From assembly GCA_020510985.1 (NCBI GenBank), contig CM035846.1, forward strand, positions 202,779,081 to 202,843,080: a stretch of 64,000 nt of DNA. The letters are read 5' to 3'. Positions 7,231-46,613 of the stretch are shown in pieces; the first letter of the stretch is position 1, and every line of letters starts with the position of its first letter. The position numbers and the translations under genes are program-made. The notes under the pieces were generated by a model. It was not told the DNA's origin and searched no databases. It saw only the letters and a list, made by a program, of their open reading frames with translations. The stretch is from Pholidichthys leucotaenia (Eukaryota).

Positions 7231-8146
7231 AGGTAAAATGTGCACAATTTGTTCTTAAATCTGCAAAGTTGGGTAAAAGGAAATTTAAAAGTATGTTTTG
7301 TGCAGCTCACCTGTGGACGCTGACCGACCCACAAGGACGAGGCACCTTCCTACACTGTGAGGCAGATCCTGTCAGGCATCTACCCTCTAGCCTGGTTAGA
7401 AATTTTTTATTATTACTTTTGATTGCAATTTCGCTCTAGTAGGATCACAGAGTTGGTGTTCCACTTTGATAGACTAAGGATAATGGAAGAGGATTAGTAG
7501 TTATTTATGCCTTGAGATATTAAGGAAAATCAGCTTGTATTTAATATTTTTTTTAATTTCTTGAACCATATTTAGTCCAAATAAGTTCATTTTGTCTCAA
7601 CTAAAGCTATTTAGCTCATTTTCTTACCTGTAGAGTACTAGAAAAAAGGTTTTATTTACCTTGACGTTTTGAGAATTGTTCCTGCTGCCTTTGTTAGAAG
7701 GGTGACGTGATGTACAGGTGTGGCCATCCTGTCTGCTCCAACAGGACGATCATGCCCCGAGTTTTCATCCAGCCTTTTCACAACAGTGTTGCTACACCTG
7801 TCAGACACCTGAGGAAAAAAAAAAAAATGAACCAAAAATGGTAAATATGGGTATGGTCACGCTACCATACATCTGACTAATCATGGAACACATTCAGAGA
7901 ATAATGAAAAAGTTCCATATTGACACTCCTGTGAAACTACACACACAACTAGGACAATTGTAAGTTCTCCCAGAAAAACAAAATGGATCAAGATAAAAGC
8001 TGCGTTGTCGTATTGCATGACAAAATATCCTGCTTGTCATGCAGGAAACAAAAAGTTGGAGAAACTGGAAGACCCTTCAGTACACAAAAGTGGGGCAATT
8101 GAGAATGTGAAAAAGAATAATCTGTTGGGTGCACAATACTAATAAG

Positions 8147-10062
8147 ATAAGCCTTTATTAGTCTCACAACAGCACAGGGATAGCAACACTCAGAGCAATA
8201 ATTTAGAAGATAAGAAAATAAGAGCAGTGAATAGACATATGTACACATAGATATATAAATATATATACACAGTGCGGAGCATTGTAGCTAGATGGACTAA
8301 ACAGCATAATTGTCTATTTAGTTACCCTTCATGGTATGAATATGTACCCATACATATTGTCACCCTCCATAGCGACTGATATTGTCCTAGTTGTATACTG
8401 GAGGGGACCATTTGTGTAAGTCTGTTGCGTCTTTTGCATTCAATACTATTAGGTCGTCACTTTTTTTTTGCTATCTCTGCGAGCAGCCCTGCTTAGGTTA
8501 TATAGTCTGACAGCTGTAGGTAGGAAGGACCTGCGAAACCTCTCAGTCGCGCACCTAGAATGATGTAGTCTACTGCTAAATAAGCTCCTCGGTGCGTTCA
8601 GTATGTCCTGCATAGGTTGGAACTCGGACTCCAGCAGAGATGACAGCTTAGCCACCATCCTTCTCTCCCCTATCTCCTCCACTGGGTCAAGGCGTTGCCC
8701 CAGGACAGAGCTAACTTTCTTGATTAGTTTGTTCAGTCTCTTCCTATCGGCTGCTGTAATGCCGTTGCCCCAGCAGACCACTCCAAAAGTGATGGCTGAT
8801 GCCACCACAGTGTCGTAGAATGTCTTCAAGAGCACCCCTTGTACACCAAAAGACCTGAATCTCCTCAGTAGAAACAGCCTGCGCTGTCCCTTCTTGTAGA
8901 GTGCGTCGGTATTGTGTGACCATTCTAGTTTATTGTTCAGATGAACACCCAGGTACTTGTAGGATGTCACCATCTCAATGTCTATTCCCTGGATGTTTAC
9001 TGGTGCTGTGAGGGGTTGTCCTTGCCTGCGGCAGTCCACTGCCAGCTCCTTAGTTTTCCTCGTCCTGGATAAGTCCTCTGTACTCAGCTTCATCTCTGTT
9101 GGAGATGAGGCTGACGATTGCAGAGTCGTCAGAGAACTTCTGTAGATGGCAGTGTGTTGTGTTGTGTGAGAAGTCCGCAGTATAAAGGGTGAACAGGAAG
9201 GGAGCTAAAACCGTTCCCTGGGGGGCCCCCTTGCTGCCGATGATCGTGTCGGACACACAATCCCGGGTTCTCACAAACTGTGGCCGGTTATTGAGGTAGT
9301 CCAGGATCCATGATGACAGGTGCCGGTCCACCCCTGCGTCATCGGTTGGATGGTGTTGAAAGCACTGGAGAAGTCAAAGAACATGATCCTCACCGCGTTC
9401 CCGGGCTTCTCCAGGTGGGACAGGGAATGGTGAAGGAGGAAGGCCACTGCATCCTCCACCCCAATGCCATGCTGGTAGGCGAACTGGAGTGGATCCATTG
9501 CTGGTCCCACCAGGGGGCAGAGGTGAGCAAGGAGCAGTCTCTCCAGGGTCTTCATCATGTGAGACGTCAGGGTCACTGGCCTGTAGCTGTTAAGGACTTT
9601 GGGGTGGGAAGTCTTTGGTACAGGTACCATGCAAGATGTTTTCCACAACTGTGGTACCCTCCCCAGCTTCAAGCTCAAGTTGAAGATGTGCTCCACAAGC
9701 CCACACAGCTGGTCTGCGCTGGACTTTAGGAGCTTGGCGCTGATGCCGTCTGGTCCCGAGGCCTTCCTCGCCTTGATATTCCTCAGCTCCATCCTCACCT
9801 GGGTCTTAGAGAGGGTCAGGTTGGGGGACTGTGTGCTGGGAGTGGGGGGGTGTTGATGGAGTGGGGTGTGGACAGCAGGTCTCGATGACTTAAGAGGCAG
9901 CAGTTGTTGGTGTGCAGGCGGATGGGAGGGCGGTTGGTCAAACCTATTAAAAAACAGGTTCAGATTGTTCACCCACTCCCTGCCCCCCAGTGGCCTGGGA
10001 GGAGATATTCTGGAGCCCAGAGATGGTTTTAAGGTTTCTCCAGACCCCGCTGATGTTGCTCT
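8147..10062 (-). mobile_element. CR1/L2-clade LINE ('L2-A') 5'-truncated copy (RT + C-term + 3'UTR), several frameshifts
   Basis: ORFs 9271..10110, 9050..9331, 8449..9093 (-) carry RT motifs (PGPDGI, FFDFSSAFNTI, QGTVLAPFLF, FSDDSAIV) co-linear with + copy 19040..20922; 3'UTR 8147..8470. Confidence 0.85.
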
Positions 10063-10387
10063 GTTGCAGCTTGATAGAGGTCTCCAATTTTCATCATAGG
10101 TATACCTCAACTATGAGAGACAAAATGAGGGAAAAAAAATCCAGAAAATCACATTGAAGGATTTTTAATGAATTAATTGGTAAATTCCTTGGTAAAATAA
10201 GTATTTGGTCACCTACAAACAAGCAAGATTTCTGGCTCTCACAGACCTGTAACAACTTCTTTAAGAGGCTCCTCTGTCCTCCACTCGTTACCTGTATTAA
10301 TGGCACCTGTTTTAACTCTTTATCAGTATAAAAAACACCTGTCCACAACCTCAAACATTCAGATTCCAAACTCCACTATGGCCAAGG

Positions 10388-10625
10388 CCAAAGAGCTGTC
10401 AAAGGACACCAGAAACAAAATTGTAGACCTGCACCGGGCTGGGAAGACTGAATCTGCAATAGGTAAGCAGCTTGGTGTGAAGAAATCAACTGTGGGAGCA
10501 ATTATTTGAAAATGGAAAACATACAAGACCACTGATAATCTCCCTCGATCTGGGGCTCCACGCAAGGTCTCACCCCGTGGGGTCAAAATGATCACGAGAA
10601 CGGTGAGCAAAAATCCCAGAACCGG
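10388..10625 (+). pseudogene. Tc1 transposase N-terminal (HTH) part, interrupted by L1 insertion
   Basis: [43 protein letters not shown].. typical Tc1 paired-like N-term. Confidence 0.75.
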
Positions 10626-11579
10626 ACTTCCGGTTATGGCTGCCACGTAAGAAGGACACGTCTCACTCTGCTCTGCTTCTGGAGAAAAAAAATCGGCAAA
10701 TAACTCATTTGGGACAGAACGTATCCCAGCGTTTGAGCGAGGATATGTCGGTGAAGCCTAAGGCTGGAAAACCAAGTAGAGGGAAAAAGCGAGCCGCAGA
10801 AACAGTCCAAATTAACGGACTTTCAGGTCTGTGACGCAGCAGAGAAAGCACCAAATATGGCGAAGGAAGCTAACAATGGCGCGGGAGCTGCGGGAAGCGA
10901 CACAGGTGCGTTGCTGGCGGCTATGAGTTCAATGAGAGCGGACTTTTCCTCTAGATTTGATGGGATTATGGCAGCGTTGGAAGGAATGAGAAAGGAATTG
11001 GGTGACTGTGTGGAACGAATGGCGCAGATGGAGCTTCGTATTTCCAGTGCTGAAGATGAAGTCAATTGTCTCCAATTAAAGGTGCGCACTTTGGGAAAAA
11101 AAAAATAAATGTCTGGAAGAAAACATTCTGGATTTGGAATCCCGGTCGAGACAGAACAACTTGAGGCTGGTGGGTCTACCGGAAGAATCCGAAGGTCAGG
11201 ACCTGTAAAGAACTGAGGTCCACACGAATAGTGGTTTCAACAAAGTTCTCTTTTAAAACTAGGAGCGGGAACATTAACAGGCGGCAACATCAACACATCG
11301 CCATTTTCATCTCATATCACTCGGTGAAGGTCAACTCTGACCTGTGACGTCACCACAGTCTTAAAGGCACAGCACATATAAATATCACATTATATGACAT
11401 CTCCCCCTTTTTTAGCTTTTTTTTTTTTTCAGAACAAAACAATTTTCAATTCAAACATTTTCCATTTCCATTTCACCCTTCCCCACAGCCCATGGTTTAA
11501 TTATTGAACCACATATAACCACACTTATCACAGTGAACACGTGAATTTCTCTCTTTTCATTTTTCATTTTTTTTTTTCT

Positions 11580-12344
11580 CTACAAATCTAGTCTTTGCAC
11601 AGGTTTAATCATTCTACCGGACCGGGTAAACAACAGTCCTTGCTTTGGGTCTGGCGGTTTGACACTGGATTCTGGTAAAATAGTGTCAGCAGCAGCTGCA
11701 GTTTCAGGCTGCTGATCGACAATCTCTGGCTGCAGGTCATTTGGAGCTGAAGAGTGTATCTCTCTGGCTGATTCAGGATCATGTTGCAAGTGACGGCGGT
11801 TGCGTCGCAAAGTTGCTCCCTGGGGTGTTTCAATAAAAAAGGAGCGAGGTGTGCTGCTTTCTCCTGTGACAACAGCGGGTGTTTTCCAGGATTTCTGATG
11901 GTCCAGCTTTGTGAGGACTGAATCTCCTGGCTTCAACGAAGGTAGGGGTTTAGCTCCATGGCGCTGATTGAAGTAGAATGCTTGTTTCTGTTTCTCCATT
12001 GCATCCTTGTTCCTGACGACTTCCAGATCAGGCCATCGGGGCTGAAGATTCACTTCGAGTGTAGGAAGAGTTGTTTTGATCTTTCGACCCATAAGTAGCT
12101 CTGCAGGACTCACGCCTGTGGTGGTGCAGGGCGTTGATCGAAAGCACATGAGGGCGAGCAAAGGATCTTGCTGCTTTAAGATTCTTTTTGCTGTTTGAAC
12201 TCCCCTCTCTGCATGTCCGTTTCCTTGGGGGTTGTGTGGACTTGAGGTGATGTGCAAAAAGTCAAACTCCCTTGCAAACTTTTTAAAATTCTTGGCATGA
12301 GAATTGAGGCCCATTGTCAGATACAACCACATCTGGACAACCAA
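11580..12344 (-). CDS. gypsy integrase core/C-terminal part (254 aa) in -1 frame relative to upstream pol, 62-nt overlap
   Basis: HITSSPHNPQGNGHAERGVQTAKRIL.. integrase DDE core; overlap with 12283..14838 implies a single frameshift. Confidence 0.75.
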   Translation of the reverse strand: MVVQMWLYLTMGLNSHAKNFKKFAREFDFLHITSSPHNPQGNGHAERGVQTAKRILKQQDPLLALMCFRSTPCTTTGVSPAELLMGRKIKTTLPTLEVNLQPRWPDLEVVRNKDAMEKQKQAFYFNQRHGAKPLPSLKPGDSVLTKLDHQKSWKTPAVVTGESSTPRSFFIETPQGATLRRNRRHLQHDPESAREIHSSAPNDLQPEIVDQQPETAAAADTILPESSVKPPDPKQGLLFTRSGRMIKPVQRLDL

Positions 12345-14838
12345 ACCTCGCGAACACTGCCTTCAGCTTTAAGATCATCTGAGAAGCAGTGGTTACTGGC
12401 AGATGAAGTATCTCGAGGAACCGAGAGAAATAGTCTGACACAACAAGGTAGGTGTGCTTGTTATGCTCACACAGGTCAACAGCAAGTCTCTTCCGGGGTC
12501 GATCAGGTAGAGGGGTTGACAAGAGAGGCTCTTTTCGCTGAGCTGGTCTCATCTCACGACACACCTGACAGGACTGGACTTTGCGTTTGATTTCAGATGA
12601 GATGCCAGGCCACCACACAGATGTGCAGGCCCGCTCTCTGCATTTTGTCAGACCTTGATGTCCATCATGTATTCGATCCAAGATGTCTGCTCTGAGCACA
12701 TCCGGAATCAGCATGCGGCTTCCTCTGGTGATAATTCCATCGCATTCAGACAGTTCATTTTTAATGGGAAAATAGTCTCTGATAGCTGCTGGGACATTGC
12801 CTATGTATTCTGGCCATCCTGACTTGATGTACCACAACACCAACTGTAGGTTACAGTCAGCTGCTGTAGCAGTCTTTATGGTGTCTATTTTCCTTAGATA
12901 GTTAAACATGCCCAGGACACGCTTGAGGTCATGCACGTTCTGTGGTGGAGGGAGCCCGCGGATTGCCTTGACTTTATCAGGGTCGGGTCTCACGCCTGAT
13001 TTGTCAATTTCTTGGCCCAAGAAGTGAAGCTTGTTTTGTCTAAACTTACATTTTTCTCTGTTCAGTTTAAGTCCGGCTGACTCGATCCTTTCCAGTACCT
13101 TGCTGAGACGCTGGTCGTGCTGTTCAGGAGTGTCGCCGTACACCAGTATGTCATCCATGTAGATAGCCACGCCTTCCAGGCCGTTGAGGGTTTCTGTCAT
13201 TTTGCGCTGAAAAATTTCAGGAGCGCTTGTGATCCCAAATGGAAGACGTTTGAATGCATATCTCCCAAAGGGTGTGATAAAGGTTGTTAATTTACTGCTT
13301 TCTGGATGGAGAGGAATCTGCCAAAACCCGGAGGCAGCATCCAATGATGTGAATGTGGTTGCTCCACTAAGTTTTGCAGTGATTTCCTCTGCAGTAGGGA
13401 GAACATACCTCTCTCTTCGTACAGCTTCATTTAACCTCTTTAAATCGACACAGATCCGCACTTTTCCATTTTTCCTTGGGACTGGCACCATTGGCGCGCA
13501 CCAATCTGTAGGATCAATCACAGCTTCAATCACATTATTATCCTCCATACGCTGCAATTCCTCTTTAACCTTCTGCAAAAGTGGCAAAGGTACACGACGG
13601 GCAGTGTGCACTGTGTATGGCTGAGCATTCTCTTTTAACAGGATTTTAACTGGTTCTGTTTTAAGTGTTCCATGTTCACCAAATGCTTTGTGTACTTCTT
13701 CAACACGCTTCACAAGCCCCATCGACATTGCTGTATCTCTGCCCAGCAAATTGTTTGCATTATTGCCACTGATGACATACACAGGAAAAGTATATGGTTT
13801 TTCTTTGTATTCTGTGAAGGCTTGAAATTTTCCTATACAGTCCAACTGACCACCCGGGCTGCACAGTGTGACATTAGATGGCTCTAATTCCTTCTTAGGA
13901 ACTAGTTCGTTAAATGTCTTTTGTCCCATAATGTTTGTATCTGCACCCGTATCAATTTTAAAATTGACTGGTGTTGTTCCAATTGTAAGCTGTATGGTCC
14001 ATGGGTCATCATTTCTGTCTGTTTTTATGACTGCGCCCAAAAAAAATGGTGTCTGGGAAACTGTCTCTTCAGTGACTTCTCTGACTGATTTACTGTGACA
14101 TTTCTTTTCCCAGTGACCCACCTTTTTACACTTGTTGCATGTTGACTTCATGGCTGGGCACTTTTCAGGATCTCTGTGTTTTAATTTTCCACATCTTCCA
14201 CACCATGAGTCTTTTTGCTCTCCACTTTTTCCTTTCCTTGGTTTAAATGGAGATCTTCCTCTGCCTGCTGCTTTTTCCTGGATCTCCTGCACCGTGGCGT
14301 GTGCCTCCCCCTGCTGGTGAACCTGGAGGACAACCTCCTCGTACTGGCGAACTGTTTGAATGGTTTGGGCAAGCGTTAGATCAGCCATCATCTGCAGTTT
14401 ACGTGACAGCTCTTTATCAAGGATGCCCACAACAATTCGGTCACGGATATGTTCATCTCTCTTTACACCAAAGTCACAGTGTTCTGACATCTCAAAAAGG
14501 GCTCTGATAAACATTTCCACTTTCTCACCGGGCCGCTGCAGCCTCTGGTGAAAACAAGCGCGCTCATGGATCACGTTCCGTTTGGGACAGAAGTACTCGT
14601 CGTATTTTCCTAACACAACGTCAAACTTCTTTTGATCCGCTTCCTCAGTAAATGAGAATGATTTCAAGATGTTTTCAGCTTCGGGGCCCATGGCGTAAAT
14701 CAGTGAACTGACCTGAATTTCGCCGTCCTCTTTATTCAGTTTTGTAGCCATCCGGAAACGCAGAAAGCGCTCTTTCCAGCCCGCCCATTCATTTGGACGA
14801 TGAAAAGGAAAACTTTCCGGGGGATTAAACTTGGCCAT
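12283..14838 (-). CDS. gypsy Gag-Pol polyprotein (851 aa: CCHC knuckle, D-T/S-G protease, RT YxDD, RNaseH, integrase HHCC N-term)
   Basis: ORF content: CGRCGKLKHRDPEKC, IDTGADTN, YMDDILVYG, integrase zinc finger HDGHQGLTKCRERACTSVWW. Confidence 0.85.
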   Translation of the reverse strand: MAKFNPPESFPFHRPNEWAGWKERFLRFRMATKLNKEDGEIQVSSLIYAMGPEAENILKSFSFTEEADQKKFDVVLGKYDEYFCPKRNVIHERACFHQRLQRPGEKVEMFIRALFEMSEHCDFGVKRDEHIRDRIVVGILDKELSRKLQMMADLTLAQTIQTVRQYEEVVLQVHQQGEAHATVQEIQEKAAGRGRSPFKPRKGKSGEQKDSWCGRCGKLKHRDPEKCPAMKSTCNKCKKVGHWEKKCHSKSVREVTEETVSQTPFFLGAVIKTDRNDDPWTIQLTIGTTPVNFKIDTGADTNIMGQKTFNELVPKKELEPSNVTLCSPGGQLDCIGKFQAFTEYKEKPYTFPVYVISGNNANNLLGRDTAMSMGLVKRVEEVHKAFGEHGTLKTEPVKILLKENAQPYTVHTARRVPLPLLQKVKEELQRMEDNNVIEAVIDPTDWCAPMVPVPRKNGKVRICVDLKRLNEAVRRERYVLPTAEEITAKLSGATTFTSLDAASGFWQIPLHPESSKLTTFITPFGRYAFKRLPFGITSAPEIFQRKMTETLNGLEGVAIYMDDILVYGDTPEQHDQRLSKVLERIESAGLKLNREKCKFRQNKLHFLGQEIDKSGVRPDPDKVKAIRGLPPPQNVHDLKRVLGMFNYLRKIDTIKTATAADCNLQLVLWYIKSGWPEYIGNVPAAIRDYFPIKNELSECDGIITRGSRMLIPDVLRADILDRIHDGHQGLTKCRERACTSVWWPGISSEIKRKVQSCQVCREMRPAQRKEPLLSTPLPDRPRKRLAVDLCEHNKHTYLVVSDYFSRFLEILHLPVTTASQMILKLKAVFARFGCPDVVVSDNGPQFSCQEF

Positions 14839-17800
14839 CTTACTGAAGCAGAGCGTCCGTCAAGCACTTCTGACACCATGTAAAGAACTGAGGTCCACAC
14901 GAATAGTGGTTTCAACAAAGTTCTCTTTTAAAACTAGGAGCGGGAACATTAACAGGCGGCAACATCAACACATCGCCATTTTCATCTCATATCACTCGGT
15001 GAAGGTCAACTCTGACCTGTGACGTCACCACAGTCTTAAAGGCACAGCACATATAAATATCACATTATATGACAGGACCCGTGTTCCTTTCTGGAAAAGT
15101 GGATTCCGGAGGCGCTGGGCAGTGCGGAGCTGCGGCCGGCGGTGGTTTTGGAGGGCGCGCATCGTATTGGCCCACGGAGAGATAAGGGACCACCGAGGAC
15201 CTTAATTATGAAGTTTGTCAGCAACAGAGACAGGATGAAGATCTTCAACGCAGCACGAGCTAAAGGAGAGATTAAACACCAGGATCAGCAGGTGCGGTTC
15301 TACCCAGATTGGGCCACAGGAATCCAACAATTGAGGAAGCAGTATGATCCCGTACGTAAGGAGCTGCGCAACCTTGGGATTCGTCATGGTGTAATCTATC
15401 CTGCGAGACTGCTGACCACGTATGGGGGCAGAACCCACATCTTCAAGACCCCAGAGGAGGCGCAGGAGTTTATCAAGAAGATCCAAGAAGAAGAGACTGG
15501 TGGGAGCTAAGCATAAACAAAATATAAGGTAGAATATTTAAGCATTTGCACAGGCATCTGACTGACTTGAAGCAAATAGCAAGTTTACAAAATATAGATT
15601 GCATTATATAATTAAAAAAAAAAAACTATGATGTACAAAGTTGCTAAAAATTTTGGAGTTAAGTTGGAAAACTACAGAGGAGAGTTAATGTTACGTCATT
15701 AAAAGCAGTAGAGTTAGGGTGATTGGGAGGATGAAGGAGTGGCTTAGGCTGATCCTCGTGGATGTGGAGCAGTCGATGGCTATATCGGGAGACGGAATTT
15801 TTCTTTTGATTTTGGGGGGTTTGCCACAAGTGTGGGAAGGGGGAATTTGTTTGTGTGTAGTTTGTAGGATGAATGTTCAACCACTCATTTTTTTGCTTCT
15901 CTGTATGAGCATGTTTACACTGCAAGGTAATCCCAAACTCCCTATTGATCATAAACCAAAGCGTTAATCTTAATTTAACTTCATGGAATTGCAGAGGTCT
16001 ACAAAATTTAAAAAAACTTAAACAAGTTATGAATAAAATAAAAGACATGGGTTCAAAAATTGTGTTTTTACAAGAAACTCATCTAATAGAGGAGGATGCA
16101 AAAAGAATTAGGAGTAGATGGCAAGGAAGTGTTTTCACCTCATCATTTTCATCCCGAGCCAGGGGAGTTATGACTCTCATACATAAATCAGTCCCTTTTC
16201 AAGTGAAAAATGTAATTGGAGACAAATTTGGAAGATATGTAATCATTCAAGGATCTTTGCTATTAGAAAATAGCAAAGATCCTATATGGTGAACCTATAT
16301 GGTCCCAATACAGATGATCAAAAGTTCTTTGCTAATTTATTTCTTATCTTATCATCACTTACAGGGCAACATATAATAGCAGGGGATTTTAATTGTACAT
16401 TGAATCCCGGTATAGATAGATCAACAGGACTGGACTGTACGCACAATGGATGTAGGATGACCATTAATCATTTTATGAAAGAATTGAGATTGCTAGATAT
16501 ATGGAGAGAAATGAAACCACAAGTCAAAGCCTACTCTTGTTATTCCAGTACCTACAAGACATTCTCACGTATTGATTATTTTTTTATTTCCACAGAATTA
16601 AGGTCCAAGATTCAAAACTGCTTTTATGATAACATCGTGATCTCTGATCATGCACCCTGCTGTATTTAGTATATGTAGATAAGAAATTGACAAAGGAATC
16701 AGGTAGATGGCAATTTCAGCATAAATGGCTTCAGGATGAGGAATTTGTCAAGTACATAGAAAAACAGATGAGTTCTTTGATATCAATACTACACAAACAT
16801 CAGCATGTGTAAAGTGGGAGGCTTTCAAAGCTTTTATTAGGGGACATATTATTAGTTATACATGTTCAAAATCTAAGAAGACTCGAGAGGAGAGAGCCCA
16901 ATTGGAACATAAAATAAAAAATCTTCAGGAAAAAGTGTATGCAGGAAGTGATCCAAGGTTGGAGAATGAATTACTGATTTTGAGAGCTGAATACGACAAA
17001 AAATCAGCGAATAGAGCTGCCTCGAGTCTTCTAAGATTGAAACAATCTTTTTATGAACAAGGTGAAAAATCAGGAAAATTATTGGCATGGCAGATTAAAC
17101 AATTAGAAATTAAAACACCAATTACCAGTATTATAAGTAACGGACAGGTAGTTATAGATCCTTTAGAAATTAACAGAGCCTTTAGAGATTACTATGAAAA
17201 ATTATATACCAAAAATGAATCTGATTTAACAAAACTAAATGGGTTTTTGAACGAACTATCTATACCTTGTATTCCAAATGAAAACAGGGAGATATTGGAG
17301 TCTAAAATTAGTCAAGAAGAAGTTGGGCTAGCCATTGATAATATGAAATCAGGAAAAAGTGCAGGACCAGATGGTCTTCCAGTTGACTTTTATAAAAAAT
17401 TTAAGAATAAATTAATAAAACCTTTTTTGGAAATGGTTTTAGAAGCATTTCAAAATAATAATTTACCATCATACATGAATAATGCCTTAATTATACTGTT
17501 GCCAAAACCAGGTAAGCCCTCTAATAAATGTGAAAATATGAGACCAATAAGCCTATTAAATGCCGACCTTAAGATAATCTGTGAAATTTTAGCAAGACGA
17601 ATACAAGAAATTTTACCAAATGTTATTAATCGAGATCAGAATGGCTTTATAAAGGGAAGACAAGGCTTCCATAATGTAAGAAGACTATTTAATATTATTT
17701 ATTTTAATAAAGAAGCACCGGATACAGCTGTCCTATCACTGGACGCCGAAAAGGCCTTTGATAGAGTCGAATGGCCCTTTCTTTTTGAAGTCTTACAAAG

Positions 17801-19039
17801 GTTTGGACTTGGAAATAATTTCATAAAATGGGTTCAGATAATATACAATAATGCTACAGCAGAAATCCTAACAAATAACAATATTTCAAAATCAATAAAA
17901 ATCAATAGAGGATGTCGACAAGGCTGTCCACTTTCACCTTTACTGTTTACTATGGCAATTGAACCTTTAGCGATGGCGATACGTTTACATTCACAAATAT
18001 ATGGAATTAAAGTTGGACCAACAGAACATAAAATCTCCCTGTACGCCGATGACATAATTTTGTTTATGTCGAATCTAAAAAAATCAATTCCGACCTTGTT
18101 GAATTTAATAAAGAATTTTGGGGAAATATCAGGATATAAAATAAATAAAACTAAATCTTCAATATTAATGCTAAATGAGACCCAGAGAAATTACCCAGAC
18201 CCTGAGGTAAATCAATTCAACGTTGTAAATCAGTTTAAATATTTAGGAATCCAAATTGTGCCTAAGCTAGAATCAGTCGCCAGTGTCAACTATGAAGCCT
18301 TAATGACAGATATCAATGAGTCAATTCAGAGATGGATGTCACTACCAATGTCGATGATCGGGAGAATCAATATACTTAAAAGTAATATTTTACCTAAAAT
18401 ACTTTATTTCAATACATTCCCTTACCACCACCTTTAGATTTATTCTCAAGAATTAAAAAAAAGTTAGTGGAATTTATATGGAACAACAGGAGGGCTAGAT
18501 TACGTCTGTCTTTATTATATTTACCATTTGATCGTGGAGGTCTGAAATGTCCAAATTTTATGTTGTATTATTGGTCGGCACAACTGAGGTCTATGACATA
18601 TTATTTTTCATTAAATGATCTCCCTCACTGGACTGAAATGGAATCATACAATTTACCTTTACCTCTTCCCATATTCATATACTCAGATTCGGCAAAAAAA
18701 TTACAAAAACAAGTTAAAAATCCATTTGTAAAGCATATGATCAAAATATGGTGTGAAGCTAAAAATTATTTAAAAGAACCACAGTTATTGTCACCATTTT
18801 GCCCAATATGGGGTAATCAATATTTTAAACCAGGAAGAGCGGACGCTGTATTTAAAGTATGGAATTCAAAAGGGATTCAAAAGATTCAAGATTTATATTT
18901 GCCATGTGCAGATAACATAACTCTCTAAAGCACTCTAAAGGACTGTTTTGAAGCCACCGCCTAGAAGCAGCTCTGCGATCCACATGGTGAGGACATCGAT
19001 GGCCTCATTCACACCTTCACGGGCTACCTCAGCTTCTGT

Positions 19040-20922
19040 GTGGACAAATCCGTTCCCACCAAGACCATACGGCGTCACTCAAACAACAAACACTGGATCA
19101 ACCCTGAGATAAAAACACTTCTGAGAGAGAAGAAGAGGATCTTCAGGTCGGGGAACAGGGAGATGCTGAAGTCCGTACAGAGGGAGCTGAGGAGAAAGAT
19201 CAGAGAAGGCAAGGACAGCTTCAGGAAGAAGATGGAGGACAAGCTGCAACAGAGCGACATCAGCGGGGTCTGGAGAAACCTCAAAACCATCTCGGGGCTC
19301 CAGAATACCTCCCCCCAGGCCACGGGGGGCAGGGAGTGGGCGAACAACCTGAATCTATTTTACAATAGATTTGACCAACCGCCCTCCCCCCTGTCTGCAC
19401 AACAACCACTGCTGCCTCTAAAGAAATCAAGTCCTGCTGCCCACTCCCCACTCCACCAACACCCCCCCACTCCCAACACACAGCCCCCCATCCTGACCCT
19501 GACCGAGACCCAGGTGAGGACGGAGCTGAGGAAGATCAAAGCGAGGAAGGCGCCGGGACCGGACGGCATCAGCGCAAAGCTCCTCAAGTCCTGTGCAGAC
19601 CAGCTGTGTGGGATTGTGACGTACAGTATATCTTCAACATGAGCCTGAAACTGGGGAGGGTACCACAGCTGTGGAAAACATCTTGTGTGGTACCTGTACC
19701 AAAGACTTCCCACCCCAAAGACCTGAACAGCTACAGACCGGTGGCCTTGACGTCCCACTTGATGAAGACCCTGGAGAGACTGCTCCTTGCTCACCTCCGC
19801 CCCCTGGTGGAACCAGCGATGGATCCACTCCAGTTCGCCTACCAGCATGGCATTGGGGTGGAGGATGCGGTGATCTTCCTCCTTCACCGTTCTCTGTCCC
19901 ACCTGGAGAAGCCCGGGAATATGGTGAGGATCATGTTCTTTGACTTCTCCAGTGCTTTCAACACCATCCAACCGATGATCCTGAAGGACAAGCTGCTGCG
20001 AGCAGGGGTGGACCAGCACCTGTCATCATGGATCCTGGACTACCTCACGAACCGGCCTCAGTTTGTGAGAACCCGGGACTGTGTGTCCGACACGATCATC
20101 AGTAGCACGGGGGCCCCCCAGGGAACGGTGCTGGCTCCCTTCCTGTTCACTCTTTATACTGCAGACTTCTCATACAACACAACACACTGCCATCTACAGA
20201 AGTTCTCTGATGACTCTGCGATCGTTGGCCTCATCTCCAATGGAGATGAAGCTGAGTACAGAGGGCTTATCCAGGACTTCGTGGACTGGTGCCATCGGAA
20301 CTGCCTCCAGATCAACGCGAGGAAAACTAAGGAGCTGGTGGTGGACTGCTGCAGGCATGGGCAGCCCCTCACAGCACCAGTAAATATACAGGGAACAGAC
20401 ATCGAGATGGTGACATCCTATAAGTACCTGGGTGTTCATCTGAACAATAAACTAGACTGGTCACACAATACTGACGCACTCTACAAGAAGGGACAGCGCA
20501 GGCTGTTCCTGCTGAGGAGACTCAGGTCTTTTGGTGTACAAGGGGCGCTGCTGAAGTCATTCTATGACACGGTGGTGGCATCAGCCATCACTTTTGGAGT
20601 GGTCTGCTGGGGCAGTGGCATTACTGCAGCCGATAGGAAGAGACTGAACAAACTGATTAAGAAAGCTAGCTCTGTCCTGGGGCAGCGCCTTGATCCGATG
20701 GAGGAGATAGGAGAGAGAAGGACGGTGGCTAAACTGTCATCTCTGCTGGAGTCCGAGTTCCACCCTATGCGGGACATACTGGATGCACTGAGGAGCTCAT
20801 TTAGCAGCAGACTACATCATCCCAGGTGCACAACCGAGAGGTTTCGTAGGTCCTTCCTACCAACGGCTGTCAGACTGTACAACCTAAGCAGGGCTGCTCG
20901 CAGAGATAGCAAAAAGACGTAA
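19040..20922 (+). pseudogene. L2-A ORF2 (post-endonuclease linker + RT + C-terminal domain), one frameshift at ~19610-19640
   Basis: KHWINPEIKTLLREKKRIFRSGN..., RT motifs PGPDGI / FFDFSSAFNTIQP / QGTVLAPFLF / FSDDSAIV. Confidence 0.85.
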
Positions 20923-21089
20923 CAAACTAATAGTTTTTTGACTGCAAAAGATGCAATAGACTTACACAATGGTCCCCTCCGGCATACAACTAGGAACATA
21001 CCGGTCGCTATGGAGGGTGAGAATATGTATGGGCACATAATCATACCATGTAGGATAACTAAGTAGACGGTTATGCTGTTTCATCCCAT

Positions 21090-21410
21090 CTAGCAACAAT
21101 GCTCTGCACTGTGTGTGTTTATATATTTACATATTTATTCCATCTAGCTACAATGCTCCGCACTGTGTTTTTATATATCTACATATTATTCCATCTAGCT
21201 ACATTGCTCCGCACTGTGTGTGTTTATATACTTGCATATTTATTCCACCTAGCTGCAATGCTCCGTACTGTGGGTGTTTATATATTTACATATTTATTCC
21301 ATCTAGCTACAATGCTCTGCACTGTGTGTTCATATACTCATATATTTATTCCATCCAGCTACAATGCTCTGCACTGTGTGTCTGTGTGTGTGTGTGTATA
21401 TATTTATTTT
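21090..21410. repeat. Minisatellite: ~5.5 tandem copies of a ~60-bp unit (tattccatctagctacaatgctc[ct]gcactgtgtgtgtttatatatttacatat) followed by (gt)n, inside L2-A 3'UTR
   Basis: Direct reading; other L2-A copies (220..300, 8240..8300, 46540..46575) contain only one unit. Confidence 0.8.
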
Positions 21411-22631
21411 ATAGTAATATGTACATATGTATATTAGCCGCTCTTGCTTGCTTGTTTTTTTCTTGCCTTCTGATTGTTGCTCTGAGTGTTGCTATCCCTG
21501 TGCTGTTGCAATCCTGGAATTTCCCCGTTGTGGGACTAATAAAGGCTTATCTTATCTTATAATGTCTTTTGAAGAGCTGAGGGTCAAATTTAATCTTAAT
21601 AGAACACATTTCTTTAAATATCTTCAACTTAGAAACTTTATTCGATCAAATCAAAATAAAGCTCTCACTCGACCTATTTATTCATCCTTGGAAAAAATGT
21701 TGATCAAAGATAGTAAAAGAAAGGGTATTATTTCAGAGTTTTATAACTCATTGACACTATCCTCAAGTGAAAATTCACAGAAAAGATTAAACTACTGGAA
21801 AGAAGATCTGCAAATTGAAATTTCAGAGGAACAATGGGAATTGGCTTGTACAGAAGCCCAAACCAAATCAATAAATGTACGTCTTAAATTGATACATTTC
21901 AAATGGTTAATGCGGATGTATGTTACACCGGAGGAGTTAAATAGATATAACAAAAATATACCAGATACATGCACAAAATGCATGGAAAGTAAAGGAACCC
22001 TATTTCATTGTGTATGGGAATGTAGAATAATAAGAATGTTTTGGGAAGAGGTGAGGGTAACAATTGAAAAAATAATCTCAAAACAAATCATTTTGAATCC
22101 TAAACTGTTTTTGTTGGGTCTGTACCCAGAAAAGCATAACTTTAATAAAAGTGAAAGAACATTCATAGACCTCAGTTTGCTTCATGCCAAAAAATGTATT
22201 GCACTACTGTGGAAAAAGACTCATAGACCAGATGTGACTCAGTGGTTAAGACAGATGTTAACAAACCTTCCATTAGAAAGAGTAACATATATACTGAAAT
22301 CAAAGGAAATTGTGTTTGAGAATATATGGAGACCTTTTATTGATCATGTAAAAAATTTAAACATAACTCTTGAAGAAGAAGGTGAATGATGTGTGTGGAC
22401 CTTGTAAATTCCAAACTGGTGAACATAATATGTATACTTATGTAATGGATTGTCTAGACTAAACAGAGGAGCATTGTTGAAGACTTGATTTTGTTGGTGG
22501 TTGTTGGTGTTTTTAGTGCATTTTTTTTTTTTTGTAGTACTTTAGTGTTAGTGTTTGTTTGTGTCATGTTTGTTTAAAAAAAAAAAGGTTCAATAAAGAT
22601 ATTGTGGGGAAAAAAAAAAAATCCCAGAACC

Positions 22632-23385
22632 ACACGGGGACCTAGTGAATGACCTGCAGTGAGCTGGGACCATAGTAACAAAGGCTACCATCAGTAACGC
22701 ACTACGCCGCCAGGGACTCAAATCCTGCAGTGCCAGACGTGTCCCCCTGCTTAAGCCAGTACATGTCCAGGCCCACCTGAAGTTTGCTTGAGAGCATTTG
22801 GATGATCCAGAAGAGGATTGGGAGAATGTCATTTGGTCAGATGAAACCAAAATAGAACTTTATTGTAAAAACTCAACTTGTTGTGTTTGGAGGAGAAAGA
22901 ACGCCATACCTACTGTGAAGCATGGGGGTGGAAACATCATGCTTTGGGGCTGTTTTTCTGCAAAGGGACCAGGACAACTGATCCGTGTAAAGGAAAGAAT
23001 GAATGGGGCCATGTATCGCGAGATTTTGAGTGAAAACCTCCTTCCATCAGCAAGGGCATTGAAGATGAAACGTGGCTGGGTCTTTCAGCATGACAATGAT
23101 CCCAAACACACTGCCCGGGCAACGAAGGAGTGGCTTTGTAAGAAGCATTTCAAGGTCCTGGAGTGGCCTAGCCAGTCTCCAGATCTCAACCCCATAGAAA
23201 ATCTTTGGAGGGAGTTGAAAGTCCATGTTGCTCAGCGACAGCTCCAAAACATCACTGCTCTAGAGGAGATCTGCATGGAGGAATGGGCCAAAATACCAGC
23301 AACAGTGTGTGAAAACCTTGTGAAGACGTACAGAAAACGTTTGACCTCTGTCATTGCCAACAAAGGGTATATAACAAAGTATTGA
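22632..23385 (+). pseudogene. Tc1 transposase C-terminal DDE part (continuation of 10388..10625)
   Basis: ORF 22798..23385: [10 protein letters not shown]...[14 protein letters not shown]...QHDNDPKHT...[16 protein letters not shown]. Confidence 0.8.
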
Positions 23386-23604
23386 GATTAAGTTTTGTTA
23401 TTGACCAAATACTTATTTTACCGAGGAATTTACCAATTAATTCATTAAAAATCCTTCAATGTGATTTTCTGGATTTTTTTTTTTTCCTCATTTTGTCTCT
23501 CATAGTTGAGGTATACCTATGATGAAAACTGGAGACCTCTCATCTTTTAAGTGGGAGAACTTGCACAATTGGTGGCTGACTAAATACTTTTTTGCCCCAC
23601 TGTA

Positions 23605-24640
23605 CGTTATCACTCCTCCGCCTCTTGCCTTCCCACTGTCTGGTGTTCGGTCTGCCCGTATTGCATGGAAACCCTCCAGTTCAATGTTAGCATCTGTTGC
23701 TAGTTCTGTTAGTCACATCTCAGTAAACATCAAGCTAATCTCTCTGAAGAAGCTCTCGTATCGAGCCATAGCCGCTAGCTCATCTGTCTTCTTGAGTAGC
23801 GATCGAACGTTCCCCATAATATCGGATGGAAGGACGGGTCTGTACCTTATATTTTTCGCTCGCCGTCTTGCTCCAGCACGGCATCCACGTCGTTTCTGTC
23901 TTATTTCACCCGGTATGTTGAGGTCTTGCGCTAGCATCTTGGTCCAGTTAAGTGCTAACAGCTGGTCTCTGCTGTAACGTCCATCCATCCATCCATCTTC
24001 TTCCGCTTAATCCTTTTCGGGTCGCAGGGGGGCTGGAGCCTATCCCAGCATCTTTTGGGCGAGAGGCAGGGTACACCCTGGACAGATCGCTAGTCCATCG
24101 CAGGGCCAACACAGAGAGACAGACAACCTTTCACTCTCACAGTCATACCTAAGGACAATTTAGAATCCCCAGTTTGATGCCAATTAACCTAACTTGCATG
24201 TTTTTGGCATGTGGGAGGAAACCGGAGAAATCCCAGAGTAAACCCACGCAGACACGGGGAGAACATACAAACTCCACACAGATCACTGTTGGTCAAGGGC
24301 TGGGATCGAACCCAGGATCCCCCGGCCAACGGTGAGTTACTGTGCTGCCGCAGTGCTAACCACTCCACCACCGCGCTGCCCCTGCTGTAACGTATCCTGC
24401 TAAAAACAGTGGCTCCGTCTGCTGGCTCAGGAGACATTTGGGCGATCCGTGTGTCTGTGCAATGTATAAGGTGTCACCGGATCAGAAAGATTAGCAAGAG
24501 AAGCCAGATAGTAAATAGAAATAGGAAGAAATTGATCCGCTGTTGCAAAAAGGCAGCCTACTTGTGTGGCGCCGGAAGTATAGTTAATATTTGCTATATT
24601 AACTATAAGTATAATTAATATATTTGCTAATATTAGCAAA
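23605..24640 (-). mobile_element. L2-A 5' fragment (5'UTR-like region + start of endonuclease ORF ..MGNVRSLLKKTDEL..), abutting the Tc1#3 right end
   Basis: ORF 23713..23988(-) shows CR1/L2 endonuclease start motif; 5' region homologous to 46990..47400. Confidence 0.6.
23981..24382 (-). mobile_element. tRNA-derived SINE with (gatg)n tail, inserted with ~11-bp TSD tgctgtaacgt
   Basis: TSD at 23970..23980 and 24383..24393; same family as 52166..52561. Confidence 0.85.
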
Positions 24641-25328: not shown

Positions 25329-28112
<2,784 letters not shown>

Positions 28113-39358: not shown

Positions 39359-40282
39359 GTCAGTGTAGACTTACCATATGATACAGAAATAGCTCAGGCA
39401 TGAATGTATCCTTTAATGATTCCATTCTTTTTACTTTACAATATTGTTTGTTTTTTTTAGACTCTTTTAGGATTACTATTGAGAAACTCCTCAGTGTCAC
39501 TAGCCAAGCTTTAATGCAGGACAGAGACCCCACTTTCATTTTATAGCGCAAATCCTCACTGATTCTAAAAACTGCTTCTCATTTCGCCGTTGTGTAAATC
39601 AGCTCCAGCTCTGGTCAGGAGGACTCGGACGTTCTGTCATGGCATTTAAGAGTCAGGAGGTAAGCTCTTATTGTCTGTTACCAAATGTTAGACTTGGACT
39701 GCCCAATGCATCTGTGACAATGGATAACTATATCAGTTAGTCAGTAAATACTTGAAACATGACATATGTTGACCCCACATGATCACGTGGTGTCTTTCGT
39801 GACATGTTTGATATCATTTGGAGAGAGACGCGAGCAACACATTTATAGGAAAAGAAGTTCTGTTTGCAAGTGATTAATGTTTTTTTAAATGTGGTAATTC
39901 ACTAAAAGGCTCTGCTTTATTCCTCTTCAGCAATGTCATTTTTGTGACGGGGGTAAAAAGTTCAGTGGCAGATTGTTCTGTGCTCATATTGGTCAGCCTC
40001 ACAGAAGTGATGGAACCATGATTAAAACAAATGTTAACCTGCCTTTTTCACTGCATTAGAATTACACCATACTGTAGATACAGTGGGGGAAATAATGATT
40101 TGATCCCTGCTGAATTTGTAAGTTTGCCCATTACAGAGTAATGAACAGTCCAGAATTTTTATGGTAGGTTTATTTTAACAGGGATACAGAAGGGGACTTC
40201 CGGTTATGGCTGCCACGTAGGACGGACGTGTCTCGCTCTGCTCTGCTCCTGGAGAAAAAAAATCGGCAAATAACTCTCTCAT

Positions 40283-41209
40283 TTGGGACAGAACGTATCC
40301 CAGCATTTGGGCGAGGATATGTCGGCGAAGCCTAAGGCTGGAAAACCAGGAAAAGGAAAAAGCGAGCCGCCGAAACAGTCCAAATTAACGGACTTTCAGG
40401 TCTGTGACGCAGCAAACAAAACTCCATATATGGCGGAGGAGGCTGGCAACGGTGCGATATCTGCGGGGAATGGCGCAGATGCGCTGATGGCTGCCATGAG
40501 TTCAATGAGAGCGGACTTTTCCTCTAGATTTGATGGGATTATGACAGCGTTGGAAGGAATAAGAAAGGAATTGGGTGACTGTGTAGAACGAACGGCGCAG
40601 ATGGAGCTCCGTCTCGCTAGTGCTGAAGATGACGTCACCCGTCTTCAATTAAAGGTGCGCACTTTGGAAAAAAAAAATAAATCTCTGGAAGATAATATTT
40701 TGGATTTGGAATCTCGGTCGAGACAGAATAATTTGAGGCTGGTGGGTCTTCCAGAGGAATCAGAAGGTCGGGACGTATGTTCCTTTCTGGAAAAGTGGAT
40801 TCCGGAGGTGCTGGGCAGCGAGGAGTTGCAATCAGCAGTGGTTCTGGAAAAAGCACATCGTATTGGCCCACGGAGAGATAAGGGACCGCCGAGGACCTTA
40901 ATTATGAAGTTTCTTAGCAACAGAGACAGGATGAAGATCTTCAACGCTGCACGTGCTAAAGGAGAGATTAAACAGCAGGACCAGCAGGTGCGGTTCTACC
41001 CAGATTTGGCCACAGGAATCCAGCAATTGAGGAAGCAGTTTGATCCCATACGTAAGGAGCTGCGCAACCTTGGGATTCGTCATGGTGTAATCTATCCTGC
41101 GAGACTGCTGACCACGTATGAGGGCAGAACCCACATCTTCAAGACCCCAGAGGAGGCGCAGGAGTTCATCAAGAAGATCAAAGAAGAAGAAGAGACTGGT
41201 GGGAGCTAA
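40283..41209 (+). CDS. L1 ORF1p (308 aa, intact)
   Basis: Uninterrupted ORF; coiled-coil region + C-terminal nucleic-acid-binding-like domain. Confidence 0.8.
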   Translation: MGQNVSQHLGEDMSAKPKAGKPGKGKSEPPKQSKLTDFQVCDAANKTPYMAEEAGNGAISAGNGADALMAAMSSMRADFSSRFDGIMTALEGIRKELGDCVERTAQMELRLASAEDDVTRLQLKVRTLEKKNKSLEDNILDLESRSRQNNLRLVGLPEESEGRDVCSFLEKWIPEVLGSEELQSAVVLEKAHRIGPRRDKGPPRTLIMKFLSNRDRMKIFNAARAKGEIKQQDQQVRFYPDLATGIQQLRKQFDPIRKELRNLGIRHGVIYPARLLTTYEGRTHIFKTPEEAQEFIKKIKEEEETGGS

Positions 41210-46383: not shown

Positions 46384-46575
46384 AAATGCAAATCAAATTT
46401 ATAAGATAAGATAAGATAAGCCTTTATTAGTCCCACAATGGGGAAATTCCAGGATTGCAACAGCACAGGGATAGCAACACTCAGAGCAACAATCAGAAGG
46501 CAAGAAAAAACATCTAGTAAACATATGTCCATATTACTATAAATGTATATATATAGACACACAGTGCAGAGCATT
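46384..46575 (-). mobile_element. L2-A 3'-terminal ~190 bp (last minisatellite unit to (cttat)3 tail)
   Basis: Reverse complement matches 21370..21560. Confidence 0.8.
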
Positions 46576-46613
46576 ATGGTTGGTTGGTGAATGTGCAGCA
46601 GAAAGTCTAAGCT

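Follow-up and report, generated by a model that had tools for sequence, protein, structure and literature searches.

The 16.5-kb segment at positions 8147-24640 of the window, the window being the whole 64-kb stretch of DNA analyzed, was found to be a stack of nested transposable elements. As the earlier note had proposed, a Tc1-like transposon is interrupted by L1, and this L1 is interrupted by both a gypsy element and an L2-like LINE; each of these three inner levels showed a TSD and a host that was contiguous without the insert, and the sites in L1 were empty in a second L1 copy. The region is in all likelihood a pile of dead or decaying elements that built up in a teleost-type genome through successive independent insertions, and very probably the pile has no collective function.

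Homology blocks in the window were identified by self-BLASTN, and the junctions and TSDs were read directly from the sequence. Empty sites and host contiguity were assessed by global alignment of L1 copy 1 with L1 copy 2, and proteins and domains were assigned using Pfam, BLASTP to full-length teleost relatives and tblastn. The Pfam and protein matches retained the family labels Tc1, L1, gypsy and L2-like LINE; on sequence grounds, the label L2-like would denote the CR1/L2 group, with L2 proper not separated from Rex1 or CR1. Several positions shifted by a few bases from those first given: the L2 3' end lies at ~8143 (not 8147), the L2/Tc1 junction at ~10072 (not 10062) and the L1 5' end at 10624 (not 10626).

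The inner levels of the stack

The left part of the Tc1-like transposon (10073-10623, plus strand) contained an inverted repeat (10076-10219) that matched 23540-23394 with 93.9% identity by self-BLASTN, followed by the transposase ATG at 10378 and codons for aa 1-82, with an HTH_SB match in Pfam. The right part (22632-23604, plus strand) encoded transposase aa 85-333 with DDE_3 and a stop at 23385. At the left junction, Tc1 reads ...GTGAGC AAAAATCCCAGAACC | GGACTTCC, where L1 begins at 10624; at the right junction, the sequence ...AATAAAGATATTGTGGGG(A)12 TCCCAGAACC | ACACGGGG leads back into Tc1 at 22632. Upon removal of L1, the transposase reads VSKNPRT|TRG and formed a contiguous ORF with HTH_SB, HTH_Tnp_Tc3_2 and DDE_3 in Pfam and tblastn coverage of aa 1-82 and 85-333. 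These readings bear out the earlier description of a Tc1 split by an L1 with a poly(A) tail and a TSD. This transposase of ~340 aa, the long (~210 bp) inverted repeats ending in CAGTG and the TA target resemble Sleeping-Beauty-type teleost Tc1 elements. Unlike those elements, the present copy is dead: it is split by 12 kb of inserts, its left end is truncated, and it contains three in-frame stops and a 2-bp deletion.

L1 copy 1 is full-length (10624-22621 including its inserts, plus strand) and sits in the Tc1 transposase gene. It ends with an AATAAA signal followed by 12 A at 22610-22621, and its TSD is (A)n-TCCCAGAACC, a perfect 10-bp repeat extended by up to 5 A; the left TSD copy, (A)5TCCCAGAACC, occupies 10609-10623, and the right copy ends at 22631. 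L1 copy 2 (40193-45695, plus strand), which served as the reference for the empty sites, has its own 15-bp TSD, ACAGGGATACAGAAG, an intact ORF1 at 40319-41209 and two frameshifts in ORF2. The 5' ends of the two copies agree (GGACTTCC in copy 1 and GGGACTTCC in copy 2).

Copy 1 consists of three segments. The 5'UTR and the first half of ORF1 (10624-11203) showed 88% identity to copy 2 at 40187-40774. The second half of ORF1, the inter-ORF region and the part of ORF2, with APE and RT, that precedes the L2 site (15080-18920) showed 95.4% identity to 40778-44640, with an RVT_1 match of E=5.7e-42 and tblastn support. The ORF2 C-terminal region (CCHC) with the 3'UTR and AATAAA (21559-22621) showed 96.7% identity to 44637-45696. 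Without both inserts, copy 1 aligned with copy 2 from end to end (5479 and 5503 bp) at 95.9% identity, and this alignment confirmed the empty gypsy and inner L2 sites that had been reported for copy 2. The flanking halves of Tc1, L1 ORF1 and L1 ORF2 were thus all contiguous once the inserts were removed, which was the point on which the proposed nesting had been staked. Since the first ~800 bp of the two copies are far more diverged (88-90% identity, compared with 97-98% elsewhere), they are not simple siblings along their full length.

Comparison with human and other vertebrate LINE-1 showed that both L1 proteins, ORF1p and ORF2p, have homologues here that are collinear with the human proteins of solved structure: ORF2 matched human L1 ORF2p over aa 9-740 (E=2.7e-123), and ORF1 matched human ORF1p with E=1.8e-15. 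The AATAAA signal with a poly(A) tail, the 11-15-bp TSDs and the T-rich cleavage site are also shared. The differences are the fish lineage, the low GC content of ORF2 (~32-33%) and the divergence between the present copies, which is much greater across the 5'UTR and the initial half of ORF1 than in the rest of the element.

The Ty3/gypsy LTR retrotransposon in L1 ORF1 is 3871 bp long (11204-15074, minus strand) and was recognized from its LTRs, PBS and PPT and from Pfam matches to RVP, RVT_1, Integrase_H2C2 and rve. Its LTRs (11204-11399 and 14879-15074; 196 bp each, ends TG..CA) are bracketed by the TSD GGACC at 11199-11203 and 15075-15079. The PBS, TGGTGTCAGAAGTG, follows the 5' LTR when the minus strand is read from 14878, and the PPT, AAAAAAGGGGGAGA, lies at ~11400-11413. 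L1 ORF1 aa 117-153 and 151-296 were found on either side by tblastn, and copy 2 is unbroken at this site (40774-40778), so the claim that ORF1 was split by an element with 196-bp LTRs and a GGACC TSD held. The LTRs, which had looked identical on first reading, showed 0 differences in 196 positions; because of this identity, the gypsy insertion is suggested to be the youngest event.

The gag-pol ORF of this element runs from 14838 to 12283 and continues to 11580 past a frameshift. Mapping on full-length relatives (1265-1297 aa, with PF17917/PF17919) revealed an in-frame deletion of ~208 aa that removed the RT connection and RNase H, and a Pfam search of the copy gave no RNase H match; the integrase is frameshifted. 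As read from its sequence, the copy is defective and is predicted to make neither RNase H nor a full integrase, either through copying in trans from a defective RNA or through damage after insertion. The relatives indicate a full length of ~4.5 kb. The element may be akin to the compact single-ORF Ty3/gypsy elements of fish, such as Jule, a Xiphophorus element of the Mag family (Volff et al. 2001, as cited in PMC9025612 and PMC4746887), with which it presumably shares short (~200 bp) LTRs, one gag-pol ORF and this inferred full length. Unlike those elements, the copy in the window has lost RNase H through the 208-aa in-frame deletion and has a frameshifted integrase.

The inner L2-like LINE in L1 ORF2 (18921-21558, plus strand) was delimited by self-BLASTN, Pfam and comparison with relatives, which are teleost proteins of ~1000 aa with APE and RT. 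It is 5'-truncated at ~aa 326-330 of the full-length relatives, and its right edge lies at 21558/60. In the 3'UTR, a 54-bp unit is tandemly repeated 5.6 times (21086-21381), and the element has a (CTTAT)n tail. Overlap with this tail makes the TSD, which measures just 2-4 bp (AA to ATAA), ambiguous. Copy 2 is unbroken at the corresponding site (44637-44640), which substantiates the reported split of ORF2 by a 5'-truncated L2. Teleost CR1/L2-group LINEs (L2, Maui and Rex1) likewise have one ORF of ~1000 aa that encodes APE and RT, are often 5'-truncated, end in short tandem repeats instead of poly(A), and have short or absent TSDs.

The outer L2-like sequence and the left end of Tc1

Tc1 had been described as flanked by two halves of an L2, with every junction readable; the right junction conformed to this description. 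There, the Tc1 inverted repeat is intact, with its terminus ...CCCCACTG at 23602 and the target TA at 23603-23604, and it is followed by the outer L2-like 5' sequence on the minus strand. The first piece (23605-23980) contains the ORF 'RYSRDQLLAL...GGGVIT', which encodes the N-terminal region and the beginning of the endonuclease; Pfam searching alone gave no match for this piece, and BLASTP matched 12 full-length relatives (e.g., P0003 aa 33-157, E=2.6e-44). The second piece (24382-24640, minus strand, 5' boundary approximate) contains the first codons and 5'UTR, with 70.8% identity to the L2 5' region at 47134-47321.

The whole of 23605-24640 had been assigned to L2, which is correct for the flanks, but 23981-24381 (minus strand) is a separate SINE of 401 bp that the earlier note missed. 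It showed 94.5% identity to 52166-52562, and a partial copy lies at 1358-1459. A 12-bp TSD, ACGTTACAGCAG, is present at 24382-24393 and 23969-23980; the element carries a Pol III A-box-like motif, TGGTGGAGTGG, a B-box, GGTTCGATCCC, and a (GATG)n tail. Neither ARAGORN nor Rfam called a tRNA in its head. The paralogous L2 5' region is empty at the SINE site (~47130-47180), and removal of the SINE regained the L2 reading frame '...GATVFSRIRYSRDQLL'.

The left L2-like piece (8143-10072, minus strand) comprises the RT domain, C-terminal region, 3'UTR and a (CTTAT)n-type tail, with Pfam matches to RVT_1 and PF09004. It showed 86.6% identity over 1902 bp to the inner L2 by self-BLASTN and matched P0003 aa 430-995 by BLASTP; its 5' edge is a truncation at the codons 'KLQQS', ~aa 430 of the full-length relatives. 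At ~10072, this truncation is joined to another: the left inverted repeat of Tc1 begins only at ~position 59-63, its first 58-62 bp being absent. The join carries no TA and no more than 1-3 nt of microhomology, so this junction is not readable as claimed. The missing terminus is absent elsewhere in the 64-kb window. Both outer L2 pieces match the same ~1000-aa teleost proteins in the same orientation, in collinear and non-overlapping fashion. Because they cover only aa 33-157 and 430-995, ~272 aa (~0.8 kb) of L2 is absent; the halves are not contiguous, and this calls for either a later deletion or a second copy of L2. The outermost nesting thus rests on one junction and parsimony.

The second of these readings, in which the left piece is an independent 5'-truncated L2 younger than Tc1 that inserted into or beside the Tc1 left inverted repeat, with a large target-site deletion in which the end of Tc1 and the remainder of the older L2 were lost, is unlikely. 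The truncated Tc1 end abuts the L2 truncation point in the manner of the usual 5' junction of a truncated LINE, the two pieces are separated by the missing ~272 aa, no outer L2 TSD of at least 8 bp tying 8143 to ~24640 was found, and other L2 copies of the same type occur in the window (e.g., 165-893, 92% identity to the left piece). However, neither the other ~60 bp of the Tc1 terminus nor any continuation of the older L2 was found left of 8143 or elsewhere in the window, so this reading requires a target deletion of at least ~3 kb, which is rarer than a simple internal deletion of 0.9 kb. Additionally, it would be a coincidence that the two pieces share an orientation and occupy collinear, non-overlapping stretches of L2.

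Order of events and comparison with other nested insertions

The preferred reading, a single outer L2 followed by an internal deletion, would comprise at least six insertions and one deletion rather than five insertions, because the SINE had been overlooked and the outer level includes a deletion. An L2-like (CR1/L2-group) LINE would first have arrived in minus-strand orientation through target-primed reverse transcription, and a Tc1-like transposon would then have been cut and pasted at a TA inside its endonuclease codons (...GGGVIT|TA). Retroposition also placed a SINE, with its 12-bp TSD, in the initial codons of this outer L2, at a time relative to the other events that nesting does not fix. 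In what is the least firm step, a deletion of ~0.9 kb would have taken the first ~60 bp of the left inverted repeat of Tc1 and ~0.8 kb of adjoining L2 (aa ~158-429). Subsequently, a full-length L1 would have retrotransposed into the Tc1 transposase gene at a T-rich cleavage site, with an 11-15-bp TSD, AATAAA and poly(A); a 5'-truncated L2 would have entered L1 ORF2, and a compact Ty3/gypsy would have integrated into L1 ORF1 via integrase, with a 5-bp TSD.

For the SINE, L1, inner L2 and gypsy, direct observation covers the junctions, TSDs, empty sites and host contiguity; for Tc1, it covers the right junction. We infer the ~0.9-kb deletion and the mutual order of the SINE, deletion, inner L2 and gypsy; nesting fixes neither the order of gypsy and inner L2 nor that of the SINE or the deletion relative to all others. 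The clean chronology of five insertions in the earlier note is therefore overstated: the three inner levels stand, but the SINE was missed, the outer level is shown at its right junction only and part of the order is not fixed. Decay is graded in accordance with the nesting, from several stops and frameshifts in the outer L2 and Tc1, through multiple frameshifts in L1 copy 1, to an inner L2 that retains ORFs of 200 and 438 aa and gypsy LTRs without differences.

The L1 TSD brackets the whole composite, and the TSDs of the inserts show entry into L1 sequence but not where this took place; a source L1 already carrying the inner L2, the gypsy or both could thus have retrotransposed into Tc1 as one unit. 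This is very improbable, as it calls for an RNA of ~12 kb with an antisense LTR element inside and both L1 ORFs disrupted; moreover, the two gypsy LTRs match at every position, whereas the L1 around them carries many frameshifts and is 2-12% different from copy 2, and the sole other L1 copy in the window is without both inserts. An assembly artefact, either a wrong join at the single non-canonical junction (~10072) between two high-copy repeats or LTRs made identical by collapse or polishing, is barely conceivable, since mis-assembly would not produce the matching TSDs and restored host frames of all the other junctions and there are no N runs or composition breaks.

A vertebrate genome contains tens of thousands of insertions of one TE in another, with 17,928 in one marsupial genome, and these are routinely used for relative dating by the TinT method (PMC3403934). 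As in TinT and genome-wide defragmentation, a younger element here interrupts an older one with TSDs at the junctions, the order is read from nesting, and host contiguity is regained once the insert is removed. There is no difference in principle: the present case is one locus with four levels, compared with the thousands of two-level cases on which the statistical methods draw. Nested insertions are routine in vertebrate genomes, and this 16.5-kb stack is an ordinary one.

Element identities and the inner layers of the nest

The ORFs at 7-26 kb were found on both strands and translated into reverse transcriptase, integrase and transposase fragments, and the nearest database proteins to the L2-like and gypsy products came from teleost fishes in every case, which marks the window as eukaryotic, fish-like DNA rich in TEs. 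The interval 7.5-25.5 kb was used as a BLASTN query against the whole window, and the homologous blocks reported below come from this search.

The Tc1 element (10073..10623 and 22632..23604) encodes a DDE transposase with paired-like HTH domains, which places it in the Tc1/mariner (Tc1-like) group: HTH_SB (9.4e-24), HTH_Tnp_Tc3_2 (4.8e-20) and DDE_3 (2.9e-14) all exceeded the curated Pfam cut-offs. An L1 interrupts this transposase, and both junctions could be read directly (insertion points are marked by a slash): ...GAGC AAAAATCCCAGAACC/GGACTTCC on the left and AATAAAGATATTGTGGGG(A)12TCCCAGAACC/ACACGGGG on the right. Upon removal of the L1, the protein read ...VSKNPRT/TRG... across the site with the same three domains above their cut-offs, and tblastn placed aa 1-82 and 85-333 on either side of the insert, which bears out the contiguity of the two Tc1 halves. 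The transposase is otherwise dead: three stops lie in frame, and 2 bp are missing from a G-run located 8 bp past the L1 junction. Elsewhere in the 64 kb, tblastn found other LINE pieces and five additional Tc1/mariner-like transposase fragments, at 1818-2716 (minus), 3899-4879 (plus, spanning the entire transposase length), 27050-27901 (plus), 45957-46252 (minus) and 51496-52068 (plus). Their aa identity to the nested Tc1 was 27-55%, and the window is thus populated by several distinct Tc1-like families.

Two L1 copies are present, at 10624..22621 (copy 1) and 40193..45695 (copy 2), and their ORF1 and ORF2 products are homologous to LINE-1 proteins. ORF2 of copy 2 was collinear with human ORF2p (8uw3; E=2.7e-123, aa 9-740 to 8-741), and ORF1 matched human ORF1p (2ykp; E=1.8e-15). 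Pfam identified Exo_endo_phos and RVT_1, with Transposase_22 under its cut-off. Both copies have the poly(A) tail and variable-length TSD of LINE-1: copy 1 ends in AATAAA and 12 A's with a TSD of 11-15 bp; copy 2, with a poly(A) tail and a 15-bp TSD of its own (ACAGGGATACAGAAG), was inserted independently. The possibility that copy 2 also lies inside a Tc1 was rejected, as a Tc1 fragment was found ~260 bp to its right and none to its left.

Copy 1 holds two inserts, a gypsy element in ORF1 (11204..15074, minus strand) and an inner L2 in ORF2 (18921..21558). The junctions read ...GGTCAGGACC/TGTAAAG and ...ATGACA/GGACCCGTG for the gypsy and ...ACATAA/CTCTCTAAAG and ...CTTATCTTAT/AATGTC for the inner L2. 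Around the inserts, three blocks of copy 1 corresponded to copy 2: 10617-11202 to 40187-40774 (88%), 15082-18920 to 40778-44640 (95.4%) and 21559-22621 to 44637-45696 (96.7%). When the gypsy (with one TSD copy) and the L2 were cut out, the remaining 5479 bp aligned globally with the 5503 bp of copy 2 at 95.9% identity, and both insertion points were read through without a break in copy 2. In agreement, tblastn found ORF1 aa 117-153 and 151-296 on the two sides of the gypsy and ORF2 C-terminal aa 1-151 and ~152-426 on the two sides of the inner L2. The earlier note had reported unoccupied sites in copy 2 and would have given up its reading if the halves of Tc1, L1 ORF1 or L1 ORF2 were not contiguous without their inserts; all three are contiguous, and the reading survives its own test. 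We also observed that identity between the two L1 copies was 97-98% in ORF2 and the 3'UTR but fell to 88-90% in the first ~800 bp, which comprise the 5'UTR and the first half of ORF1 (10624-15294 versus 40193-41000). This uneven identity points to gene conversion or to mosaic subfamilies that differ in their 5' modules.

The gypsy element has the structure of a Ty3/gypsy retrotransposon, with 196-bp LTRs (11204-11399 and 14879-15074) ending in TGT..ACA, a PBS starting with TGG after the 5' LTR, the PPT AAAAAAGGGGGAGA before the 3' LTR and the TSD GGACC. The Pfam domains of its ORF were RVP (weak), RVT_1, Integrase_H2C2, which is typical of Ty3/gypsy, and rve, giving the order PR-RT-IN without RNase H. 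The full-length relatives (1265-1297 aa) all contain the RNase H domains PF17917 and PF17919. In comparison with P0121, a database relative of the gag-pol ORF, the copy has no equivalent of aa 622-829, an internal in-frame deletion of 208 aa that reads ...FNYLRK/IDTIKTATAAD..., with the deletion junction ...TTTAACTATCTAAGGAAA/ATAGACACCATAAAGACT.... The length of 3871 bp plus ~620 bp agrees with the ~4.4-4.5-kb contigs that bear full-length relatives. A frameshift was also present in an A-run in the integrase core (~12290), and the copy is thus defective through both lesions. These defects may have arisen before insertion, with trans-mobilisation, or after it, as a single copy fits either order. 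The LTRs were identical at 196/196 positions, which sets a 95% upper bound of ~1.5% on their divergence, and the gypsy is probably the youngest layer.

With identical LTRs and an in-frame loss of RNase H, the element might belong to a currently active non-autonomous deletion lineage that full-length relatives copy in trans; alternatively, the mixed-orientation nest might mark a TE-trap or piRNA-cluster-like region. We consider such readings unlikely. Exact-protein look-ups with the 851-aa gypsy ORF and with ORF1 of L1 copy 2 returned no other record. The related Etheostoma protein P0173 was rejected as a second copy lacking RNase H, as its gaps in the alignment differ and resemble gene-model artefacts. 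Apart from the nest, a block of 53% GC with strong GC skew was observed at 54000-56000; it contains a 288-aa ORF (54642-55508) of gag-like appearance with a CCHC-type motif and is probably another LTR-element remnant.

L2-like LINEs and the outermost level

The L2-like copies contain RVT_1 and PF09004, and their relatives are teleost APE+RT proteins of 970-1050 aa with PF03372 and PF00078. They show the features of the L2/CR1 group of LINEs, namely a single APE+RT ORF, no poly(A), a tandem-repeat 3' end and 5' truncation. All three tails in the window, at 21558, 8143 and 46401, are (CTTAT)n, and the inner L2 is truncated at ~aa 326. The match to L1 and R2 structures was weak and confined to the RT domain, so the element is clearly not an L1. 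Our label L2-like denotes an element of the CR1/L2 group with these features and a putative member of the L2 clade proper, as opposed to CR1 or Rex1.

The outer L2 consists of a left piece (8143..10072) and a right piece (23605..24640), both on the minus strand. The left piece (8247-10073) matched the inner L2 (21138-19240) on the opposite strand at 86.6% identity. The 132-aa right-hand fragment gave no Pfam match and was identified by BLASTP against full-length relatives. The earlier note had the L2 5' region reach 24640, and it does extend to ~24610-24640; 401 bp of this interval, however, are a SINE, with a TSD and a second copy in the window. The sequence at 23984-24381 was 94.5% identical to 52562-52166, with a partial match at 1358-1459 (88%). 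The element is short, non-coding and multicopy, begins with GGGCAGCGCGGTGGTGGAGTGGTTAGCAC..., finishes in (GATG)n and is flanked by an exact 12-bp TSD, ACGTTACAGCAG, at 24393-24382 and 23980-23969. Its excision restored the L2 reading ...GATVFSRIRYSRDQLLAL, in agreement with the N-termini of relatives, and a second L2 5' region at ~47000-47330 was unbroken at this site. The SINE contains an A-box-like motif (TGGTGGAGTGG) and an exact B box (GGTTCGATCCC), and a putative tRNA-derived origin is based on these motifs only; neither ARAGORN nor Rfam at E<=1 found a tRNA in its head.

At the outermost level, where Tc1 was read as inserted into one L2, the earlier account fails at the left junction. 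The right end of Tc1 is complete (…CCCCACTG TA) and breaks into the L2 codons at ...GGGVIT. At the left end, the inverted repeat could be matched from ~position 59-63 onwards (GAT-AGAGGTCTCC); 58-62 bp and the TA were absent, and the element directly abutted the L2 codons 'KLQQS'. The inverted repeats could still be aligned over 147 bp (10076-10219 with 23540-23394; 93.9%). Thus, Tc1 does not have two TA-flanked termini, and the L2 halves are also not contiguous. In a comparison with twelve full-length relatives, aa 33-157 were covered by the right piece and aa 430-995 by the left (numbering of P0003, a full-length teleost relative), so that ~272 aa (~0.8 kb), made up of the greater part of the endonuclease plus the linker, are absent. 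From the inner L2, at least 320 bp (18921-19240) would be expected upstream of the truncation point of the left piece, and BLASTN found none of this sequence right of Tc1.

Provided that the assembly is correct, the simplest reading, which we regard as probable, is one L2 that received Tc1 and then lost ~0.9 kb across the Tc1/L2 boundary. The left piece could also be a second, 5'-truncated L2; the gap in the protein and the abrupt Tc1 end would suit this as well, yet it is less parsimonious, as its arrival must have been accompanied by a target deletion of ~3 kb or more. A simple insertion of L2 into the Tc1 repeat with the target left intact was rejected: the missing ~60 bp of the left Tc1 terminus were sought across the window with up to 3 mismatches, and only the right-end copy was found. 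No TSD of at least 8 bp was shared between the flank left of 8143 and the sequence beyond the L2 5' end on the right.

Some further features of the L2-like copies were observed. An L2 3' fragment at 165-893 (minus) was 92% identical to the outer-left piece, whereas the inner L2 was only 87% identical to either; this is a hint that at least two L2 subfamilies or waves contributed. A 54-bp unit repeated in tandem (5.6 copies, 86% matches) occupies 21086-21381 within the 3'UTR of the inner L2, and only about one such unit is present in the outer L2 and in the L2 tail at 46401-46587. This tail belongs to a compact ~0.93-kb chimera (46401-47340, minus) of three directly adjoining parts: an L2 5' region with the first ORF codons to '..RRGCRAG..KKYKT'; a decayed histone H3 coding sequence (ATG 46989, TAG ~46610), which shows 79% aa identity in aa 1-102 and has undergone a frameshift and an internal deletion; and an L2 3'UTR with a (CTTAT)3 tail, which at 46587-46401 shares 80% identity with the tail of the inner L2. 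The chimera reads like an L2 with its ORF replaced by H3 and could be a histone-carrying non-autonomous L2 or have arisen by double template switching. A TSD was not seen at this chimera, and a search of the literature for such L2-histone combinations gave nothing specific and no description.

Order of insertions and its meaning

For Tc1, L1 ORF1, L1 ORF2 and the L2 5' codons, the host sequence was contiguous once the insert and one TSD copy were removed. These sites support the order L2 before SINE and Tc1 before L1, with the inner L2 and the gypsy both later than L1; an outer L2 older than Tc1 is supported by the right junction only. The decay of the ORFs is in line with this order. Nesting does not fix whether the gypsy or the inner L2 came first, nor when the SINE and the deletion arose. 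The feature described in the earlier note is real and most of the observation was correct, but its five clean insertions become at least six and one deletion, and its interpretation is partly supported.

Nested TE insertions are commonplace and the basis of standard relative dating, with 17,928 reported by TinT in one marsupial genome (PMC3403934), and among vertebrates teleosts rank highest in TE superfamily diversity, many families having been active recently (PMC5381603). The element types and mechanisms found here are all already known, and the significance of the locus beyond annotation is slight. It is a tidy teaching example of how relative transposon order is obtained from nesting, TSDs and empty paralogous sites. 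The corrections bear on any automated 'Russian-doll' chronology, in which truncated junctions and overlooked SINEs can let an outer layer seem too clean.

In the nest, activity of L2-like and Tc1 elements came first and was followed by that of L1 and, afterwards, by another L2 wave and a very recent gypsy. This suggests that L2-like elements were active before as well as after L1 in this genome, and the compact gypsy family may still be active. If an active gypsy deletion lineage did exist, the locus would document LTR retrotransposition in this fish that is either very recent or still under way.
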